A DNA stretch of 11,484 bases from positions 1-11,484 of the forward strand of contig JAHLWE010000123.1 in NCBI GenBank assembly GCA_019058135.1, read 5' to 3'. How positions within the stretch are numbered: the first letter of the stretch is position 1; each line of letters begins with the position of its first letter. A program made the position numbers and the translations under genes. Positions 1-11,484 of the stretch are shown piece after piece. Source of the stretch: Promethearchaeota archaeon (GTDB lineage Archaea > Asgardarchaeota > Lokiarchaeia > Sigyniarchaeales > SOKP01). Below the pieces are notes generated by a model. It had not been told where the DNA came from. It was given only the letters and a program-made list of their open reading frames with translations, and did no database searches.

Positions 1-1
1 A

Positions 2-328
2 TTTTGTCCAAAATGTAATAATTTATTACGAAAGAAAATAATTGATAAGAAATTTATTTATTCTTGTGCTTGCGGATATTCAGAACCGTTTGAAGAAGAT
101 ATACAAGAAAAGGAAATGATCGCTAAAAGTAAAAACAAAAAATATTCAGATAAAACAATTGTCTTACCAGAAATAAATGCTATAATTTACCCAATAACTA
201 AGTCAGAATGTAGAAAATGTGGAAATAAAGAAGCAGAATATTGGCAATCCCAAACACGTTCGGCAGATGAAGGATCAACAACTTTTTTTCGTTGCACAAA
301 ATGTAAATTTACTTGGCGTGAATATTAA
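2..328 (+). CDS. tfs: Transcription factor S (TFS, TFIIS/RpoM-type transcript cleavage factor); 5' end cut by the window edge, only a few codons missing
   Basis: The frame of the 116..328 ORF stays open back to nt 2 and reads FCPKCNNLLRKK...YSCACGY, an N-terminal Zn ribbon. The C-terminal Zn ribbon is CRKCGNKEAEYWQSQTRSADEGSTTFFRCTKCKFTWREY, with the acidic RSADE hairpin typical of TFIIS domain III / archaeal TFS. Confidence 0.85.
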   Translation, partial: FCPKCNNLLRKKIIDKKFIYSCACGYSEPFEEDIQEKEMIAKSKNKKYSDKTIVLPEINAIIYPITKSECRKCGNKEAEYWQSQTRSADEGSTTFFRCTKCKFTWREY

Positions 329-974: not shown

Positions 975-1907
975 ATGATAATGAGGGATTTTAAAAACCA
1001 GCATATATTAAGTGCAAGAGATTTTACTAGGGAAGAAATAGATTTTATTCTGGAAATCGGTAAAAAGATGGTAAATAATAAGTATTCTAAATTATTAGAT
1101 AATAAAATAATGGCTGCTTTATTTTTTGAACCTTCAACCAGAACAAGATTAAGCTTTGAATCTGCAATGCTTAGATTAGGAGGAAAAGTTATTGGATTCC
1201 AATCTCGTGATGTCTCATCAGTTAAAAAGGGAGAATCTATTGCAGATACAATTAGAACAGTTGAAAATTATTCAGATATTATTGTAATCCGTCATCCTTT
1301 GGAAGGTGTAGCACGTATGGCAGCCAAATTTTCTTCAATTCCGATTATTAATGGTGGATCAGGAAGCGCAGAACACCCTACACAGGCGTTATTAGATTTA
1401 TTTACAATCAAAGAAGAATGTGGAACCATTGATGGACTAAATATTGGACTCTGTGGTGATTTAAAATATGGCCGGACAGTTCATTCGCTAGCCTATCTTT
1501 TTAGTAATTATAATATAAATTTATATTTTATATCTCCTGCTTCATTGAAAATGCGATTTAGAATAACTGACTGGTTGCGTAACAAAAAGATGAAATTTAA
1601 AGAAACTGAAAAGTTCAAGGAGATATTACCAATATTAGACATTTTGTATATGACACGAATTCAAGAAGAACGTTTTTTAGAAGCAGAAGAATATGAAAAA
1701 GTTAAAGACGTATATATCTTAACTAAAAAGGATTTAGATAATACAAAAAAAGGCTTTCGTTTAATGCATCCATTACCAAGAGTAGGTGAAATATCTCCTG
1801 ATATTGATAAATCTCCTAAAGCAATATATTTTAAGCAAATGAAATATGGGTTGTATCTAAGAATGGCACTGCTTGCATTAATTTTGAAAGGAAATAATTT
1901 TTTATAG
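975..1907 (+). CDS. pyrB: Aspartate carbamoyltransferase catalytic subunit
   Basis: 310 aa with the carbamoyl-phosphate motif FFEPSTRTRLSFE, plus HPTQALLD and the HPLPRV aspartate-domain motif. The start could be ATG 975 or ATG 981. Confidence 0.93.
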   Translation: MIMRDFKNQHILSARDFTREEIDFILEIGKKMVNNKYSKLLDNKIMAALFFEPSTRTRLSFESAMLRLGGKVIGFQSRDVSSVKKGESIADTIRTVENYSDIIVIRHPLEGVARMAAKFSSIPIINGGSGSAEHPTQALLDLFTIKEECGTIDGLNIGLCGDLKYGRTVHSLAYLFSNYNINLYFISPASLKMRFRITDWLRNKKMKFKETEKFKEILPILDILYMTRIQEERFLEAEEYEKVKDVYILTKKDLDNTKKGFRLMHPLPRVGEISPDIDKSPKAIYFKQMKYGLYLRMALLALILKGNNFL

Positions 1908-1920
1908 ATTTTATAAAAAT
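1897..1920. repeat. A/T-only inverted repeat spanning the stop codons of two convergent genes
   Basis: The core stem is 9 bp: TTTTTATA (1899..1906) pairs with TATAAAAA (1912..1919) and A1897 pairs with T1920 (T1898 has no partner), around a 5-nt loop GATTT. The pyrB TAG (1905..1907) and the TAA of the 709-aa gene (revcomp of 1911..1913) sit inside it. T-runs are present on both strands. Confidence 0.35.
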
Positions 1921-4040
1921 CTATTTACAATTTTTTTATTTAAGAATTCAGAATCTATATATTCAGTATCTGGTCTTATAAGAACACCTTTTTTATTAAT
2001 AGATTCATTGTAATAATTTAATTGCTTTGATGAAAAACAAAAATAATGAATCCCATATGTAATTAAATATTTTATTTTTTCGTAGAAATCTTCTATATTT
2101 TTTGAATTGGGTAGTAATATGTTAAAGAGTGAACCCCCATCTACAATTTTCTGAAATATTTTAAATAAAGAGATTTTTCTTTCAAAGCTCAATTTTGATT
2201 CAAATCGTATGAATTCTGTACTGAAACTATCATACTTATGAGAAATATTATCAAATTCAAAATTCCATCTATTCATAAGATAATTACCTACATGAGGCTG
2301 GGAGAAAATGAAGTATTCATTTTGTTCATTATTTATTTCATTTATTCTGTTATTAATTGTAGTTAAAATTTGTTTTGCAAACTCTTGACTTTGATCAATT
2401 CGATCTAGCTCGATATTACAATGATATAGAATGGATTCATTTAAACCAAAAAAACTGATTGCTTTAAAAACATGATCTGGTAATATACAATTTTTATTAT
2501 TAAAGAGAATTCTAGAAAGAGACTGCCAATGATGAAATGAATTTAAATATTTTTTTATTAAATCTTGTTTTATTTTAAAAATTTCAAATACCCCTGTGAT
2601 ATTTAAATCTAATAATTCGAGAAAGTGTTGATCATTTTGTTTTGATTCTAATGCAATTTTTGGTAAATTTATAAAGATTTTATCCAATAATATTTTGTTA
2701 AATGAATTATGGATGGAATCAAAATCTTGAGTTATTGAAGTTAATATATTGTTTATAGGATTTGATCCTCGATTTCTATAGAAAAGCAAATTTGATTTAT
2801 CAATTATATTGAAAAATCGAGTAAGAACACTTTCTTTGAAGTTTTGAGAATTAATATCACTACAATCATATAATATCAATGGATTTAAATGAACAAAATT
2901 TCGAAATGGATCAATTTTTATTGATTCAATCAAATTATTCTCTAATTCTGTGATAAGACTCGGGTCAAATTCTCTCTTTCGTAAAAAATCGTGTGAAAAA
3001 TCTAAACTGATTTGAGATTTTCCTAAATTTAAATTTAAATTTAATTTAAAGAATTGTTCCAAAAGGAATAATAATAAACTTTTAGTATCTTTTTGATTAA
3101 ATCTTGAAAGTATTGAAAGTAATATTTCATTAAACCTATTTAACAAAATATCTTCATTAAAAAATTTCTTAATATCAGTTAGAATTGAGATAAAATTTGT
3201 GAAATAAGATTTTATTTGGGTTTTTTCAAGAGTTTCATCGATTTTTAGAAAACTTTTATTCAAATTATTTGTATTCTCTAAATTAGAAATAGAAATAGAC
3301 AAAGGGCGTAAAGCCCAAGAATCTAGATGTAATAACGATATCTGACCTGAAAGATAGAGATCTGCTAATTCACGTGGTAATAAATTTAATAATAGATATT
3401 GCTCTGATACTTCACTACCCAATTTTTTTAAAAATTCTTTAGGATCAGAAAATTGTTGGCTTCTTATTAAGGATTCTACCTCGAAAGGTGGTAAGCCTAA
3501 TCGTGTAAGTTTGTGTCTATATTCCTCAAAACCCTTTTCGATTAAAATGCCATTTATATATTCTCTTATTAGAGGAGTAGTTAAGTAATTTACTTTTGAA
3601 TTAGATAACTTTAACTTTACTTCATTTGCAATTTTTCTTGCTAATTTTTCTGGCATCTCTGATTCTCGAATTAAGTATTCGACGATTTTCTTTAAATCAA
3701 ATAATTCAAAAGTGTAATTTGATGTTCGGATTTGAAGATTTCTTTTTTCTTCATTAATTATATCTCCTATGTCTAATAATTTCTCCAATATTCTCCCACC
3801 CAATTTTGTTAAAAAATAACCTTCGTCTCCTGATAATATGAAATTGTTTTCTTTTAGAACGTTTAAATGATATGAAATTTTACTGCTATCTCCTTTTTCT
3901 TCTAAAATTCTTCTCTTTAAAGCCATAAACGGAATTGGGCTGTTTATTTCATATAAAATCTTGAGAATTCGTAATCTTATATTTTTTCCAATAATTTGCA
4001 AATGCTTTTCTAAATTACTTGAACTGTTTTTTGTATTCAA
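1911..4040 (-). CDS. Fusion protein: ArsR-like winged-helix DNA-binding domain + ATP-cone + degenerate class III ribonucleotide reductase (NrdD)-like core lacking the glycyl-radical domain; putative nucleotide-sensing regulator
   Basis: N-terminus: RLRILKILYEINSPIPFMALKRRIL...ISYHLNVLKENNFILSGDEGYFLTKLG, an ArsR/SmtB wHTH pattern. Residues about 103-180, IRTSNYTFELFDLKKIVEYLIRESEMPEKLARKIANEVKLKL...LIREYINGILIEKGFEEYRHKL, follow the ATP-cone pattern. NrdD-core landmarks appear in order: LPRELADLYLSGQISLLHLD (cf. AHxxGxIHxHDxD), IFINLPKIALESKQNDQHFLELL (cf. T4 NrdD VTLNLPRIALDS), ISFFGLNESILY (cf. GYIGxHE), FIFSQPHVGNYL (cf. LYSTPAE), and DGGSLFNILLPNSKNIEDFYEKIKYLITYGIHYFCFS (cf. GGHISYVELP...LDYFGVN). 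The start codon is TTG (4038..4040), bounded upstream by an in-frame TAA. The first ATG, at residue 39, would delete the wHTH. Confidence 0.65.
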   Translation of the reverse strand: MNTKNSSSNLEKHLQIIGKNIRLRILKILYEINSPIPFMALKRRILEEKGDSSKISYHLNVLKENNFILSGDEGYFLTKLGGRILEKLLDIGDIINEEKRNLQIRTSNYTFELFDLKKIVEYLIRESEMPEKLARKIANEVKLKLSNSKVNYLTTPLIREYINGILIEKGFEEYRHKLTRLGLPPFEVESLIRSQQFSDPKEFLKKLGSEVSEQYLLLNLLPRELADLYLSGQISLLHLDSWALRPLSISISNLENTNNLNKSFLKIDETLEKTQIKSYFTNFISILTDIKKFFNEDILLNRFNEILLSILSRFNQKDTKSLLLFLLEQFFKLNLNLNLGKSQISLDFSHDFLRKREFDPSLITELENNLIESIKIDPFRNFVHLNPLILYDCSDINSQNFKESVLTRFFNIIDKSNLLFYRNRGSNPINNILTSITQDFDSIHNSFNKILLDKIFINLPKIALESKQNDQHFLELLDLNITGVFEIFKIKQDLIKKYLNSFHHWQSLSRILFNNKNCILPDHVFKAISFFGLNESILYHCNIELDRIDQSQEFAKQILTTINNRINEINNEQNEYFIFSQPHVGNYLMNRWNFEFDNISHKYDSFSTEFIRFESKLSFERKISLFKIFQKIVDGGSLFNILLPNSKNIEDFYEKIKYLITYGIHYFCFSSKQLNYYNESINKKGVLIRPDTEYIDSEFLNKKIVNRFL
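3025..3050 (-). repeat. In-frame hexanucleotide tandem repeat (AAATTT x3, then a degenerate unit) inside the NrdD-like CDS
   Basis: aaatttaaatttaaattt (3025..3042) continues as aatttaaa and encodes KLNLNLNLG in the protein. The 6-bp unit means copy-number slippage would not shift the frame. Confidence 0.7.
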
Positions 4041-4123
4041 ATTATTGTGTTAATTTTTTCTTCTTTTTTAAACTAGATTTAACCAAATACAAATATAAAA
4101 TTTGCTAATACCATATAATTGGG

Positions 4124-4150
4124 AAAAATTAAGGATTTTTATTATCCCTT
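4124..4150 (-). terminator. Possible terminator downstream of rps7
   Basis: The minus strand reads AAGGGAT-AATAAAA-ATCCTT, a 6-bp stem with one bulged G, followed by AATTTTTCCC (T5). It lies about 66 nt after the rps7 stop. Archaeal RNAP terminates at oligo-T. Confidence 0.35.
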
Positions 4151-4215
4151 CCGACAAAAATCATTTTAGAATATGGTAAATAATTAAGAAGAATAGAGAA
4201 AGAGTTTAATTCTAA

Positions 4216-4833: not shown

Positions 4834-5021
4834 ATATTCAATTTAACACCATTACAATCAAAAATATCCATTGTTGAATATAAAATTCCATTTCTCTTAA
4901 ATTTATCTTTCTCCTAAAGAAAAATTAGAAAGTAATGAAGCGAAAATAACAGTAAAATTTAATTAAAGTGATTAAATATTAAAATATAACAAAAAAATTT
5001 TCACAATAAATTGAGTTTTAA
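4834..5021. promoter_or_regulatory. Divergent promoter spacer between rps7 (minus) and the inverted rps12 (plus)
   Basis: 188-bp AT-rich spacer. TATA-like TAAATATTAAAATATAA at about 4973..4989 lies about 35-45 nt upstream of the rps12 ATG. On the minus strand, TTTTATATTC (revcomp of about 4875..4884) and a GGTG (revcomp of 4847..4850) lie upstream of the rps7 ATG. Confidence 0.4.
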
Positions 5022-5453
5022 ATGCCGCCTAAGGGTCTATATAGTGCCAAAGCACTAAAACGAAATAGGAAAAAATTTAGATGGAGTAAGACAAAATATA
5101 AAAGAAAAAAACTTAAATTAAAACAAAAAGCAGATCCATTACAAGGAGCTCCCGCCGCTGAAGGAATAGTGCTTGAGAAGGTGGGCAGAGAGAGTAAACA
5201 ACCTAACAGTGCAATACGTAAATGTCTTAGAGTCCAATTAAGAAAAAACGGCAAAACTATAACTTGTTTTCTTCCGGGTGATGGTGCGCTTAACTTCATC
5301 CAGGAGCATGACACTGTATTGGTGGAGGGCATAGGTGGTGCAAAGGGAAGGGCAGTGGGTGATTTACCTGGTGTTAGGTGGAAAGTAACAAAGGTTAACG
5401 GAGTAAGTTTAGAAGCTTTAATAGCTGGAAAGCGAGAAAAAACTATGCGTTAA
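5022..5453 (+). CDS. rps12: 30S ribosomal protein S12 (uS12 / S23e-type)
   Basis: 143 aa: [16 protein letters not shown]...[69 protein letters not shown]...[18 protein letters not shown]. Near-consensus archaeal uS12. It is encoded on the opposite strand to all its usual operon partners. Confidence 0.95.
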
Positions 5454-5502: not shown

Positions 5503-5581
5503 AGATATTATTAAATATTTATTTAATTTATTTAGATCAAGCTAATTTAATCCAATTAGTAATTATATTAAAAATTAAGAA

Positions 5582-7825: not shown

Positions 7826-10765
7826 TTATTTTTTAACTCCATATTTTTCTTTTTTCCATTCATTAAATTGTTTTGTTTGTTTTCCACGCCAGATTGCCTT
7901 TTTCCCTGTTTCATTTTCAAATTCTTGAATTAGAGATTCTTCATCAAGACTTTTTTTATCTTTTTTCGTTGGTTGCTTTAGAATTTTGTTTTTTGTTTTT
8001 TTTACAGGAACTTTTTTCACTGATGCTTTTTTCACTGGTGCTTTTTTCACCGAAGTTTTAATAGTTGGTATTTTCTTGATAGATTTTAACGCTTTGGCTT
8101 TTAATATTAAAAGATCAAGGTTTATTGCTAAACCATGGTCGCTCTTAGAGGGGTCAATTCCATCATCTCCAAATTGAAATTGAACAATACTCTTATTAGC
8201 ATCTCTTACAGTATTATCATTTTCAACCTTTACATCTTGTAATGCATTAACTAACCTTCTTTGCATATATCCACTCTGACTGGTTCTAACAGCAGTATCA
8301 ACAAGTCCCTCTCTACCACCCATTGAATGGAAGAAAAACTCTTCAGGATTTAAACCTTTTCGATATGATGAGGAAACAAATCCTCTTGCTTTAGCAGAGA
8401 GATCACTAATCTTATAGTGAGGTAATGTTCTCTTTATATAACCTCGATGTATTCTTTCACCCCGAATTGCTTGTTGCCCAACCACTGCAGCCATTTGACC
8501 AAGATTTAGAGGATTACCTCGCGCTCCAGACTTTGTCATTATAACCGAATGGGCTTGATCTCCAATATCAATGGAGGCAATGGTTTCAGCTTTCTTTCTT
8601 GCATCGTTTAATATCCCTCTAATTCTTAATTCCAAAGTTTCTTTTAAAGTTCTTCCCGGGGCTCGAGATAAAATAGTGTCATCTTTATTATGGTATGCTT
8701 CTATGAGTTCTTCACATTCTATATTTGCTTTATCTATAGCATTTATGATTTCTTCCATTGCATCACCTTTTACAAAAACTTCATCTAGACCAATAGTAAT
8801 CCCATTCATTCTGATTACATAAAGGAGCATTTGTATCGAATTATCCAAAAACACTCTCCCTCTTTCATTTCCATTATCTTTTATTATTCGGTGTAAAATA
8901 CTATTTGGTTTCATTGCTCCAAAAGTTGCTTCATCAATAGTTCCAGTTAACAATTTCCCGTTTTCAATATGAACATATGCATCATATTCACAATCATCCT
9001 CTTTACATACGTCACATTTCTTGCAAAACTTTGATCTTTTCCGTAAATTTAAGTCTTGTGGAAATAATGCACTAAAAATTGACTTTCCAGAATATTTTGG
9101 CTCTGGATCAGTTATTACTGGTGTTAAATCAATTATTGAAAAATCTGGATTTGTGTCAAATATTCTACCTAAATATAATAATTTTAAAGTATCCTTAATA
9201 TTATAAACAGAGTCCTTACTTGTAAATTGATAAACAGTAGATATAAAATCCTGAATTCCACCTATTATTGGCCCACCAAAACGAGGAGATAACATATGTT
9301 CTTGAACTTTTAAAAGTAATTCTGCTTCAGTCCTTGCCTCTTCACTCTGAGGGACATGTAAATTCATCTCATCCCCGTCAAAATCTGCATTATATGGAGG
9401 ACAAATTGTCAAATTTAATCTAAATGTTCTTCCGTCCATAATTTTTACTTCATGAGCCATAATTGACATTCTATGAAGTGAAGGTTGGCGATTAAATAAA
9501 ACTAAATCTCCATTATTAAGGTGCCTTTCAACAATATAACCAGGCACTAGAGTTTCTGCAATTACATCTCTATTCTTAACATATCGGAGATCTATTCTAC
9601 GATTATCAGTTCTTATTATATAATTTGCTCCCGGATGCTCAATTGGTCCATTTATAACCAGTTGTTTCATCTCTTCAATATTCCAAGGATTTACGTTTGA
9701 TGGAATTGTGAGTATTTTTGCAATACTGGTTGGTACTCCCACATCATTAATACTAATATGAGGATTAGGTGAAATTACACTTCTGGCGGAAAAATCTACT
9801 CGTTTTCCACTCAAATTACTTCTAAATCGTCCCTCCTTACCCTTTAATCTCTGTGTAATTGTTCTTAAGGCTCTACCAGATCTATGCCGTGCAGGAGGAA
9901 TTCCAGAAACTTCATTATCAAAATATGTTGTAATATGATATTGTAAAAGTTCCCACAGGTCTTCCACAATAAGATGTGGTGCGCCAGCGTCAAGATTTTC
10001 TCTCAATCTTTGGTTTATACGGATTACATCAACTAATTTATGAGTTAAATCATCCTCCGATCTAATTCCACTATCTAAAGTAATTGAAGGTCTAACACAA
10101 ACTGGTGGGATGGGTAAAACCTCCAATACTGTCCATTCAGGTCTAGCAGAAGCTGGAGAGATTCCCATAATTCTAAGGTCATTATCAGAAATTTTTATTA
10201 ACCTTTCTCTAATATCCATTGGAGTCAATCTTCTTGAACCTTTACCCTCCTCCTCTTCATAAAAAGTAGTGGGTTTCTCAATAACAATTTTTTTCTTTCT
10301 TGCTCCACAATATGGACATTTTTTTGTTTTTCTCGCTGATTTAAAAATTAACTTAGTTAATTCTTCATCACTTTCAAAATACATCTCACGATGTTTCTCT
10401 TGTTCTTTAATAGATTTTTCCTTTTCTTCATGTGTGAGCATGAGCATTGAACATTCTGGGCATATGCTACGGAGGATCTTTAAAACCTTCTTTGCATATC
10501 CGCAATGAATAATGGGTCTTGCCATTTCGATGTGGCCAAAATGTCCCATACATTGACTTACAAGATTTCCGCACGTTCGACAACGTTGGCCAGGTTCAAT
10601 CGTGCCCAAACGTTGATCCATAAGGCCAGATGGGATAGGGAGACCATCTTCATCATATGTATCGGCAGTAATTATTCTAGCACTAGATAATTTACGTATT
10701 TCATCTGGAGAGAGGATTCCGAACCTAATTTTTTCGACTATCTTGGTTTTTAAATAACTACTCAA
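7826..10765 (-). CDS. rpoA1: DNA-directed RNA polymerase subunit A' (Rpo1N) with a lysine-rich C-terminal extension
   Basis: 979 aa: FGILSPDEIRKLS, Zn motifs CRTCGN...CMGHFGH and CPEC...CPYCG, RSNLSGKRVDFSARSVISP, and the catalytic PYNADFDGDEMNLHVPQS. The start codon is TTG (10763..10765), with an in-frame TGA 4 codons upstream. The first ATG is at residue 49, downstream of the conserved N-terminal block FGILSPDEIRKLS. GAGGT lies 9 nt upstream. Confidence 0.95.
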   Translation of the reverse strand: MSSYLKTKIVEKIRFGILSPDEIRKLSSARIITADTYDEDGLPIPSGLMDQRLGTIEPGQRCRTCGNLVSQCMGHFGHIEMARPIIHCGYAKKVLKILRSICPECSMLMLTHEEKEKSIKEQEKHREMYFESDEELTKLIFKSARKTKKCPYCGARKKKIVIEKPTTFYEEEEGKGSRRLTPMDIRERLIKISDNDLRIMGISPASARPEWTVLEVLPIPPVCVRPSITLDSGIRSEDDLTHKLVDVIRINQRLRENLDAGAPHLIVEDLWELLQYHITTYFDNEVSGIPPARHRSGRALRTITQRLKGKEGRFRSNLSGKRVDFSARSVISPNPHISINDVGVPTSIAKILTIPSNVNPWNIEEMKQLVINGPIEHPGANYIIRTDNRRIDLRYVKNRDVIAETLVPGYIVERHLNNGDLVLFNRQPSLHRMSIMAHEVKIMDGRTFRLNLTICPPYNADFDGDEMNLHVPQSEEARTEAELLLKVQEHMLSPRFGGPIIGGIQDFISTVYQFTSKDSVYNIKDTLKLLYLGRIFDTNPDFSIIDLTPVITDPEPKYSGKSIFSALFPQDLNLRKRSKFCKKCDVCKEDDCEYDAYVHIENGKLLTGTIDEATFGAMKPNSILHRIIKDNGNERGRVFLDNSIQMLLYVIRMNGITIGLDEVFVKGDAMEEIINAIDKANIECEELIEAYHNKDDTILSRAPGRTLKETLELRIRGILNDARKKAETIASIDIGDQAHSVIMTKSGARGNPLNLGQMAAVVGQQAIRGERIHRGYIKRTLPHYKISDLSAKARGFVSSSYRKGLNPEEFFFHSMGGREGLVDTAVRTSQSGYMQRRLVNALQDVKVENDNTVRDANKSIVQFQFGDDGIDPSKSDHGLAINLDLLILKAKALKSIKKIPTIKTSVKKAPVKKASVKKVPVKKTKNKILKQPTKKDKKSLDEESLIQEFENETGKKAIWRGKQTKQFNEWKKEKYGVKK
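7997..8056 (-). repeat. 4 x 15-bp tandem repeat inside the rpoA1 3' extension, encoding pentapeptide xxVKK repeats
   Basis: Plus-strand units: tttttttacaggaac / ttttttcactgatgc / ttttttcactggtgc / ttttttcaccgaagt. Minus-strand translation: TSVKK-APVKK-ASVKK-VPVKK. Confidence 0.85.
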
Positions 10766-10800
10766 AGAGTAAGGACCTCATTTTATTTTTTTATATATTG
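10766..10800 (-). promoter_or_regulatory. rpoA1 translation-initiation and proximal promoter elements
   Basis: The minus strand reads CAATATATAAAAAAATAAAATGAGGTCCTTACTCT-TTG. The SD-like GAGGT is the revcomp of 10775..10779, with 9-nt spacing to the TTG. The TATA-like ATATATAA is the revcomp of 10791..10798. That TATA sits close to the SD, so the real TSS may lie further upstream. Confidence 0.35.
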
Positions 10801-11088
10801 ATTGAAATAAGAAATAAACCTACAAAACAAGTTAGAATAAATCTTATAATTTTGGTTTGTAATATTTTCTCATGAAGCAAATCTTAAAAATTTTTCTAAA
10901 ATTTTAGTTTTAACTCGATTAAACAGCAAATTAAGTCAAACAAAATAAGCCTTTTTTTATATTTAAAATTTTATCTAAATATTAGCCATCATATCAAAGA
11001 AAAGTTATCTACAACGCAAAAAGACATAATAAATCTAAAATAAAGAAAATATATTGAGAAATATTGGCAAATTGAGCGAATTGAAACC

Positions 11089-11112
11089 AAAAATCGTTAT
11101 TCCCAGCAACGA
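11089..11112 (-). terminator. Hairpin plus T5 terminator candidate downstream of the right-edge small ORF
   Basis: The minus strand reads TCGTT-GCTGGGAAT-AACGA-TTTTT, a 5-bp stem, 9-nt loop and T5. It lies about 37 nt after the TAG stop at 11149..11151. Confidence 0.4.
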
Positions 11113-11148
11113 AACACGATTCTCTACATAAAATTCAAGGGATCGCCA

Positions 11149-11484
11149 CTATACTTTTTGATTTAATATTGTAAAGCCGCAAGAAGAAACATTGAACTTT
11201 TTTATGTATTTTTCTATAATCTCCCTTGTCCGAATATCCTTTTCATTCGCTTCAAGAAACTCTTCAAAGTTTTCAAGATCTTTGAAGACCATTTGCTCTG
11301 TATATTTGTTTTTTTTCTGAGTAAATTGGTAGGAAAAGTACTTTTTCACTTCCATGGGCATAAATAATTCATACCGCTTACAGTAGTGGGATTCATAAAG
11401 CGGTTTCAATTTTTCCCTTGCAAACTTAATGAAGTCTTCCAACTTTTCTGGAGGCACCTCACACGACCATTGAACCAGAATCAA
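11149..11484 (-). CDS. Hypothetical small protein, predicted beta-alpha-beta-beta-alpha-beta (ferredoxin-like, ABM/Dabb/NIPSNAP-like) fold; 5' end may run off the window
   Basis: Uninterrupted 111-codon frame to the window edge. The first in-window codon is TTG, so the M in the ORF track is not proof of a start. The alternating pattern is ILVQWSCEV (strand), PEKLEDFIKFAREKLKPLYESH (helix), KRYELFMP (strand), YTEQMVFKD (strand), LENFEEFLEANEKD...IEKYIKKF (helix), CGFTILNQ (strand). I recognise no family-specific motif. Confidence 0.45.
   Translation of the reverse strand: MILVQWSCEVPPEKLEDFIKFAREKLKPLYESHYCKRYELFMPMEVKKYFSYQFTQKKNKYTEQMVFKDLENFEEFLEANEKDIRTREIIEKYIKKFNVSSCGFTILNQKV

Follow-up and report, generated by a model that had tools for sequence, protein, structure and literature searches.

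A winged helix and an ATP-cone on a catalytically dead class III ribonucleotide reductase: a widespread archaeal protein family and candidate nucleotide-responsive regulator

In bacterial NrdR, which is also present in some archaea, an ATP-cone gates DNA binding (PMC9110341), and in animal viruses a catalytically inactive homologue of ribonucleotide reductase (RNR) R1 is known from the herpesvirus protein M45/vIRA (PMC12845177). The roles of the finger-loop Cys, the first-strand Cys, the NxN flap and the Glu of the PAE motif in class III (anaerobic) RNR, NrdD, are as described for the P. copri enzyme (PMC11226230), and the RNR phylogeny of Burnim et al. mentions neither Asgard archaea nor inactive forms. 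Here we describe a gene in an 11,484-nucleotide (nt) stretch of contig JAHLWE010000123.1 (assembly GCA_019058135.1, Promethearchaeota archaeon, Lokiarchaeia; the whole stretch is hereafter the window, archaeal and of low GC content, ~24-35%), the 709-amino-acid (aa) product of which consists of an ArsR-type winged helix-turn-helix (wHTH), an ATP-cone and a catalytically dead NrdD barrel. Full-text literature searches did not find this family or architecture described. Enzyme-derived regulators and ATP-cone regulators are kinds already known; what is new is a putative ATP-cone/wHTH regulator built on a dead NrdD.

The order of the three domains had been proposed in an initial annotation of the window, and Pfam, hhalign and an AlphaFold2 model searched with Foldseek all agree with it (Table 1). 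At the N-terminus, residues 14-86 match the Pfam wHTH family DUF7347 (E 2.8e-10, 40.7 bits vs a cut-off of 27.6), a family profile matches ArsR/CzrA structures with E 0.04-0.09, and Pfam HTH_5 scores above its cut-off in two relatives (P0148 and P0151). The model has the corresponding helix-helix-helix-wing topology (helices 20-32, 38-47 and 55-64, strands 68-71 and 74-77, and a further helix 79-98), with a predicted local distance difference test score (pLDDT) of 80-93. The ATP-cone family PF03477 follows at residues 103-174 (E 1.4e-6, 29.2 bits vs a gathering cut-off of 25.8), where the model shows a beta-hairpin and four helices (strands 103-107 and 110-113, helices 116-127, 131-146, 155-169 and 172-178).

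The remainder of the protein is a ten-stranded alpha/beta barrel of the RNR/glycyl-radical-enzyme type. Pfam NRDD matches residues 456-672 (E 8e-19, 68 bits vs a cut-off of 26.2), and comparison by hhalign with seven intact archaeal NrdDs gives 99.8% probability (E 6.8e-30), the 540 aligned columns beginning at the ATP-cone and reaching the last barrel strands. The AlphaFold2 model, built on 119 homologues, has a mean pLDDT of 79 and a predicted template modelling score of 0.72, with only the last 37 residues disordered, and its top Foldseek matches in the PDB are class III RNRs only (S. thermophilus, P. copri, T. maritima and T4; 9d3x, 8p28, 4con and 1h7b; E 6e-18 to 5e-11, TM 0.5-0.6), with class I and II RNRs far weaker. 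The NrdD landmarks picked out in the initial annotation (NLPKIALES, FFGLNE, SQPHVG and DGGSLFNILLP...IHYFCFS) all align to the corresponding NrdD motifs. The protein nevertheless scores 60.4 bits against the NCBIfam NrdD equivalog TIGR02487, the cut-off for which is 326.

In the ATP-cone, the basic K-R pair of bacterial proteins, which binds the triphosphate (P. copri K7/R8, PMC11226230), is replaced by T106-S107, and an Arg stands one position earlier. R105, T106, S107, Y109, E112 and F114 are invariant in 119 sequences. An altered KRDG motif had been reported in the initial annotation; the motif does differ, reading (R)TSNY, and it has not degenerated, as archaeal NrdDs of the sister clade with their catalytic residues intact also have the V-R-T-S-K hairpin and YTRLGxP pattern. 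Judged by alignment, the RTS(K) hairpin is a lineage trait common to the family and active archaeal NrdDs, neither decay nor proof of loss. Because these intact enzymes carry the same VRTSK...YTRLGxP pattern, we predict that the ATP-cone is probably still competent.

The 709-aa protein cannot reduce nucleotides: its radical chemistry is lost, and six defining features of an active NrdD are absent from it. Catalytic positions were read from a three-tier MAFFT alignment and from hhalign, with E. coli NrdD, three phage NrdDs and intact archaeal NrdDs as comparators; the N-terminal half required hhalign against the intact archaeal enzymes. A large automatic MAFFT alignment misaligned the finger loop, and the finger-loop Cys was scored across the family by a motif-anchored count together with hhalign. 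The thiyl-radical Cys (E. coli C384, P. copri C416) is gone from the window protein, QCCR/PMGCRS of the enzymes aligning to N-I-L-T, and none of the branches of the family has a conserved Cys within the 60 residues before the NLP motif. The first-strand Cys is S248 here; family-wide this column is Ser or Gly in the Loki branch, Glu, Ser, Asp or Asn elsewhere, and Cys in none of 377 long sequences. The ENANLQ stretch bearing the NxN flap is removed by a ten-residue deletion, and PAE has become P-H-V with loss of the Glu.

The C-terminus has lost the remaining chemistry. The protein continues for only 39 residues after IHYFCFS, the last residue of which is 670, and this tail has one Gly (G685), no Cys and no R-x-x-G-Y motif. 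The structural zinc site, CxxC...CxxC, is missing from the window protein and from all orthologues of ~660-709 aa. Within the tail, KKGVLIRPD (1968-1994) corresponds in the alignment to the glycyl loop, RVCGYLGSPD in E. coli, and the terminal IVNRFL to the NrdD C-terminal tail. This vestige is restricted to the window clade (P0001-P0009), is missing from the ~660-aa orthologues, has Asn in place of the Gly in one member (P0006) and is modelled with pLDDT <40. Most of the losses had been read off by eye in the initial annotation, and its account of the tail, of the missing finger-loop thiyl Cys and of the Cys replaced in SISIS (TNCC in T4) holds, S248 aligning to E. coli C175. Its statement that no Cys lies within more than 100 residues around FYRNRGS is incorrect: C393 is 27 residues upstream, specific to the window clade and outside the finger loop.

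A separate set of residues has become fixed in the Loki-type proteins. H540, C541, E544 and H583 are invariant and P582 (near-)invariant in Loki-type orthologues (nt 2409-2423 and 2292-2297), all five are unconserved in the zinc-ribbon branch described below and in intact NrdDs, and H583 stands where the PAE motif has its Ala. Together these residues may make up a new site for a ligand or metal near the former active site. Among the intact enzymes, the NrdD of Clostridium phage c-st (L088, 395-3331) is interrupted by an intein exactly at the finger-loop Cys pair (ALASC, then CFDG...THN, then CRLTSS), and several intact archaeal NrdDs of ~1140-1190 aa also bear intein/LAGLIDADG Pfam domains.

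The nearest active relatives are the archaeal ATP-cone NrdDs of Bathyarchaeia, Archaeoglobi and Thermoprotei. Like these, the fused protein has the VRTSK hairpin, the YTRLGxP linker and the ten-stranded barrel, and it keeps the NLPRIA, GLNE and GG..H/F.I motifs; it has a common ancestry with them and occupies the same locus in many genomes. Unlike them, it is no enzyme, lacking the thiyl Cys, the first-strand Cys, HxHD, the NxN flap, the PAE Glu and the conserved radical Gly, and it has a wHTH added at the N-terminus; the window branch is without the zinc ribbon as well. Similar to ArsR/SmtB repressors (Pfam HTH_5, HTH_20; DUF7347), it has the wHTH topology, the signature S-x-H-L-x-x-L-x-x-x-x-L/I and long flanking helices resembling the dimerising alpha1/alpha5, but no metal-sensing site is evident and the wHTH is fused to a 600-aa sensor or scaffold instead of standing alone. 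Among enzyme-derived or "trigger-enzyme" regulators and RNR pseudoenzymes, M45/vIRA is likewise an RNR large-subunit scaffold repurposed after loss of catalysis (PMC12845177); M45/vIRA, however, is a class I homologue of animal viruses acting in cell-death signalling, and the archaeal protein derives from class III and bears a DNA-binding domain.

The architecture recognized in this one protein extends to a very large family. At E <= 1e-3, a phmmer search against 1.84 billion representatives (clusters at 50% identity) returned 757 clusters, 140 of which also passed E <= 1e-30. Relatives are encoded at no fewer than 580 loci of species-representative genomes. The 80 best of these loci are all from Asgard archaea except one labelled Candidatus Nanopelagicaceae bacterium (L072, DATKTW010000033.1); this contig carries a complete Asgard-type locus (rpoA'-...-S7-gene-pyrB-L44e-S27e) and is probably mis-binned or mislabelled. 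A second branch, of ~760 aa, retains the zinc ribbon and is found in Hel-, Baldr-, Odin-, Frey-, Jord-, Njord- and Lokiarchaeia, Bathyarchaeia and Methanomethylicota. All four zinc Cys are present in 109/109 members of this branch and the first-strand Cys in none, and the radical-Gly column holds Gly in 48, Ala in 33 and Ser in 21. Pfam NRDD scores fall stepwise from 487 bits in an intact neighbouring enzyme through 269 in the zinc-ribbon branch and 68 in the window protein to 21 in a diverged Loki paralogue. Such paralogues (P0147, P0151 and P0183; L094) include one of 1164 aa with long Asn/Lys-rich low-complexity inserts. Automatic pipelines name family members "anaerobic ribonucleoside-triphosphate reductase" (the Prokaryotic Genome Annotation Pipeline, PGAP), "ArsR family/helix-turn-helix transcriptional regulator" or "hypothetical protein"; the PGAP name mislabels a non-enzyme.

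Genomic context ties the family to class III RNR outside the window lineage. In metagenome loci of the Bathyarchaeia type, a glutaredoxin-like gene (grx) and a fully intact nrdD come directly after the fused gene on the same strand and are followed by convergent pyrB and then pyrI, NAC and a PUA protein. Of 84 metagenome loci, 30 show the intact nrdD, and many of the remainder do not extend far enough to tell. Where the downstream nrdD is complete, it matches R[IVT]xG[YF] and has the zinc ribbon in every case (24/24), a Gly motif seen in none of ~84 fused genes. The neighbouring intact NrdD is also the closest active relative of the fused protein (28.5% identity over 733 aa, E 1.6e-73; E. coli NrdD 1.5e-27). 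We therefore read the origin of the family as a probable tandem duplication of nrdD combined with a winged-helix fusion. A profile search for intact NrdD gave named top hits only in Bathyarchaeia, Archaeoglobi, Thermoprotei and Hydrothermarchaeales, with no Asgard among them.

Other lineages have rearranged this neighbourhood. Loki-type loci have rps7 upstream on the same strand in 80 of 86 cases, some with inserted genes, and convergent pyrB follows in 85 of 86; beyond pyrB lie L44e, S27e and TFS, and PCNA, primase and GINS in the longer loci inspected. The Odin and Baldr loci consist of the gene, convergent pyrB and pyrI, and in Methanomethylicota and one Loki paralogue the order is HMG-CoA (3-hydroxy-3-methylglutaryl-CoA) synthase, thiolase, DUF35, gene, NAC and PUA, that Loki paralogue (L094) retaining the zinc ribbon. 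Because the Bathyarchaeia-type loci have grx and intact nrdD between the gene and pyrB, we read the adjacency to pyrB in the window as what remains of an ancestral [gene][grx][nrdD]<pyrB order once nrdD had disappeared from the locus, and not as a sign of pyrimidine control. The link to nucleotide pools that the initial annotation had drawn from the pyrB and rps7 neighbours is thus better explained by synteny, the rps7 adjacency being limited to Loki-type loci. As to pyrI, lokiarchaeal pyrB is without it as a neighbour, the Odin, Baldr and Bathyarchaeia loci (L091, L093, L096, L098) have it divergently beside pyrB, and in L094 it lies ~7 kb from the paralogue.

The gene is intact and under selection. 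Its TTG start stands immediately after an in-frame stop and is required because the first ATG is downstream of the conserved N-terminal helix, and the exact 709-aa protein is found in public Lokiarchaeota metagenome-assembled genome data from independent assemblies. A frameshift that hides a continuation into a glycyl-radical domain, which the initial annotation had asked to be excluded, is ruled out since the stop codon abuts full-length convergent pyrB, and the truncation is real. Against relatives 90-95% identical in protein, the ratio of nonsynonymous to synonymous substitution rates (dN/dS) is 0.21-0.28 overall, ~0.1 on the wHTH (~0.07-0.3), ~0.1 on the ATP-cone and linker and 0.2-0.5 on the barrel; the tail, at 0.5-1.9, is near neutral. 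An alignment of 119 sequences, only ~40% identical to the window protein, has 67 invariant columns. With dN/dS well below 1 and this many invariant columns, the gene is functional and under purifying selection, the wHTH and ATP-cone being most constrained.

We favour, at slightly better than even probability, the reading that the protein is a dimeric nucleotide-responsive DNA-binding regulator of deoxynucleoside triphosphate (dNTP) supply. This is consistent with the position of the gene upstream of grx and intact nrdD in Bathyarchaeia-type loci and with selection being strongest on the wHTH and ATP-cone. In this scheme, the protein would dimerise through its NrdD-like barrel, which might also hold a nucleotide pocket, and ATP or dATP would bind to the ATP-cone, whose motif is of the type seen in the active sister enzymes. 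The bound nucleotide would then change how the protein oligomerises or how its two winged helices are placed, and with that its DNA binding. The ancestral target was likely the adjacent grx-nrdD operon, which would make the protein a functional analogue of NrdR. In Lokiarchaeia, the gene stands apart from nrdD, with pyrB on one side and the RNA polymerase/ribosomal cluster on the other, and has a presumed promoter of its own. The initial annotation had likewise proposed an enzyme turned transcription factor; the structural half of that proposal, a wHTH and ATP-cone on a dead NrdD, is borne out, and the transcription-factor function is a reasonable proposal.

The resemblance to NrdR would be one of analogy: both combine a DNA-binding module with an ATP-cone, both have a genomic tie to an RNR operon, and nucleotide-gated DNA binding is proposed here by comparison (PMC9110341). 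Homology is limited to the ATP-cone. The archaeal protein has an ArsR-type wHTH (DUF7347) and no Cys4 zinc ribbon at its N-terminus, is four times larger by virtue of a whole dead RNR barrel, and has no NrdR-box-like operator in the promoters examined.

Several observations weigh against a dedicated regulator of dNTP supply. The window lineage has no nrd gene nearby, and the ATP-cone has T-S where bacterial ATP-cones have the canonical K-R. The presence of up to three diverged paralogues in Lokiarchaeia is harder to reconcile with one repressor dedicated to nrd. In loci of the Bathyarchaeia type, the promoter of the gene and that of grx-nrdD have no motif in common, and no shared operator of the paired NrdR-box kind emerged in the promoters of the gene or of grx-nrdD. 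In Loki orthologues (L011-L086), the region ~30-125 nt upstream does have a conserved layout (ATATCACCnnnATATTAT, ~20 nt, AAATTTTTATATA, ~10 nt, ATATTATTTAGTTAAGCAG..TTAAAGAA), but these blocks occur only upstream of the gene itself and are conserved no better than the adjacent pyrB/L44e promoters.

The divergent pyrB/L44e promoter is as conserved as that of the Loki gene, and we rejected the blocks ATATCACCnnnATATTAT/ATATTATTTAGTTAAGCAG as an operator on the ground that neighbouring promoters are equally conserved. Both blocks are missing from the window clade, where the intergenic layout differs, and extra copies in two loci (L040, 5196-5290 and 7878-7965; L056) are duplication relics beside duplicated acyltransferase genes. 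A direct repeat in L091 was also rejected as an operator, being specific to that locus.

A wider version of the regulator hypothesis, which we put forward tentatively and consider possible but not probable, is that a dead-RNR regulator common to Asgard archaea and Bathyarchaeia/Methanomethylicota senses ATP/dATP (or dNTP) by means of the allosteric domain inherited from the enzyme and controls dNTP supply, and that in Lokiarchaeia, uncoupled from nrdD and present as paralogues, it may run a wider replication/cell-cycle regulon. A related alternative, in our view unlikely, would dispense with nrd control entirely and have the RNR scaffold reused in a DNA- or chromatin-associated factor such as a replication/cell-cycle regulator or nucleoid protein. 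Its appeal lies in the fixed place of the Loki gene between the rpoA-nusA-S12-S7 and L44e-S27e-TFS-PCNA-primase-GINS clusters, in the separation from nrdD and in the several paralogues. Conserved order in these clusters is general, however, and has no implication for function, the deeper synteny points to nrdD, and the kept ATP-cone argues for nucleotide control.

Regulation of an active paralogue is a frequent role of pseudoenzymes. The fused protein could on this model be a partner of the active RNR, forming a heterodimer with intact NrdD, itself a dimer when working, or docking to it so as to tune its activity or activation, with the wHTH as an interaction or tethering module in place of a reader of specific promoters. 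The gene is a paralogue of intact nrdD and directly adjoins it in many loci, and the barrel is kept, as is the zinc ribbon outside Loki. Set against this are the Loki, Odin, Baldr and Methanomethylicota loci, in which the gene is not beside nrdD, the stronger selection on the wHTH and ATP-cone than on the barrel, and the ArsR recognition-helix signature S-x-H-L-x-x-L retained in the wHTH, and we regard such a partnership as distinctly unlikely.

That the protein is still a reductase, with unconventional residues or an external radical source, is highly improbable. The NrdD fold and ATP-cone are kept, G685 sits in a loop-like vestige and PGAP names the protein an anaerobic RNR, but both essential Cys, the NxN flap, the substrate-binding Glu of PAE, the zinc ribbon and the conserved Gly are all missing, the score is 60 bits vs an equivalog cut-off of 326, and the tail is unstructured and evolving neutrally. 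No NrdG activase adjoins the gene, as the initial annotation had stated, and tblastn found none near it. A decaying pseudogene or assembly artefact, to which the TTG start and the truncation of the catalytic C-terminus might point, is effectively refuted by a frame intact in hundreds of genomes, dN/dS well below 1, many invariant columns and the identical protein from independent assemblies.

If the regulator of dNTP supply is correct, archaea controlled ribonucleotide reduction independently of NrdR, through a second copy of the reductase that lost its chemistry and acquired a winged helix. The family would then be an archaeal counterpart of NrdR, reached independently, and a clear example of an enzyme turned sensor, on a scaffold with well-understood allosteric sites, with its Loki members in the closest prokaryotic relatives of eukaryotes. 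The family is widespread, in hundreds of species-level genomes of Asgard archaea and Bathyarchaeia/Methanomethylicota, and the proposal is testable. Counts of class III RNR in Asgard and Bathyarchaeia reconstructions, for example those bearing on oxygen relations, may include a non-enzyme.

Table 1. Positions in the window of the 709-aa gene, its parts and its neighbours.
Feature	Positions	Strand	Remarks
Whole coding sequence, 709 aa	1911..4040	minus	TTG start 4038-4040, stop 1911-1913; ORF (open reading frame) list
ArsR-type wHTH, aa 10-98	3747..4013	minus	Pfam, family profile, AlphaFold2
wHTH recognition helix ISYHLNVLKENNFI, aa 55-68			
ATP-cone, aa 103-178	3507..3734	minus	Hairpin IRTSNY vs bacterial V-x-K-R-D-G
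NrdD-like alpha/beta barrel without catalytic residues, aa 179-672	2025..3506	minus	Foldseek, hhalign, Pfam
Degenerate H-x-H-D motif LYLSGQISLLHLDSW	3315..3359	minus	AHxSGxIHIHDLEYF in intact enzymes; HIHDLEYF reads SLLHLDSW here
SISIS, S248 at the first-strand catalytic Cys	3285..3299	minus	E. coli C175, P. copri C171; RPFCQ in archaeal NrdD
Former finger (Cys-radical) loop FYRNRGSNPINNILTS, aa 418-445	2706..2789	minus	No Cys
NLPKIALES, best-conserved NrdD barrel motif	2643..2669	minus	NLPRIALE in enzymes
Leu452			Asn preceding NLPRIA in enzymes (GRNNLG)
C-terminal tail, aa 673-709	1914..2024	minus	Glycyl-radical-domain vestige without zinc ribbon
rps7-gene intergenic region	4041..4215	minus	TATA-like AAATTTTATATTT at ~4091-4103, presumed own promoter (sequence only)
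pyrB, convergent neighbour (context, no functional part)	975..1907	plus	Pfam OTCace_N/OTCace
rpoA', rpoA'', L30e, nusA, rps7, 709-aa ORF, L44e, S27e		minus	ORFs and Pfam
rps12, pyrB		plus	ORFs and Pfam

The remaining content of the window is mostly RNA polymerase and ribosomal genes, and an Rfam scan of the window gave no match. At its start, a TFS/RpoM-like zinc-ribbon ORF (1-328, plus strand) is cut by the window boundary and is listed from an internal ATG at 116; its orthologues are 111 aa long. The gene rps12 (5022-5453, plus strand) is inverted within an otherwise co-directional rpoA'-rpoA''-L30e-nusA-[S12]-S7 cluster and is bracketed by AT-rich inverted repeats of 32 nt, 75% complementary (4957-4988 and 5506-5537). 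The inversion is common to the window clade (L001-L003, L007-L010) and is found separately in L041, S12 being co-directional in all other Loki loci.

RpoA' has a C-terminal extension of ~110 aa past its Pfam Rpb1 domains (7826-8155, minus strand; aa ~870-979), made up of Lys-rich repeats (KKAPVKKASVKKVPVKK) followed by IWRGKQTKQFNEWKKEKYG, and the orthologues in other Loki loci are of similar length (973-975 aa). Upstream of rpoA' (10766-11484) there is no rpoB; a 111-aa ORF without Pfam match (11149-11484, minus strand) is present instead. A related 208-kb contig (L002) likewise has unknown ORFs at the place expected for rpoB, and the RNA polymerase operon is therefore split in the window lineage.

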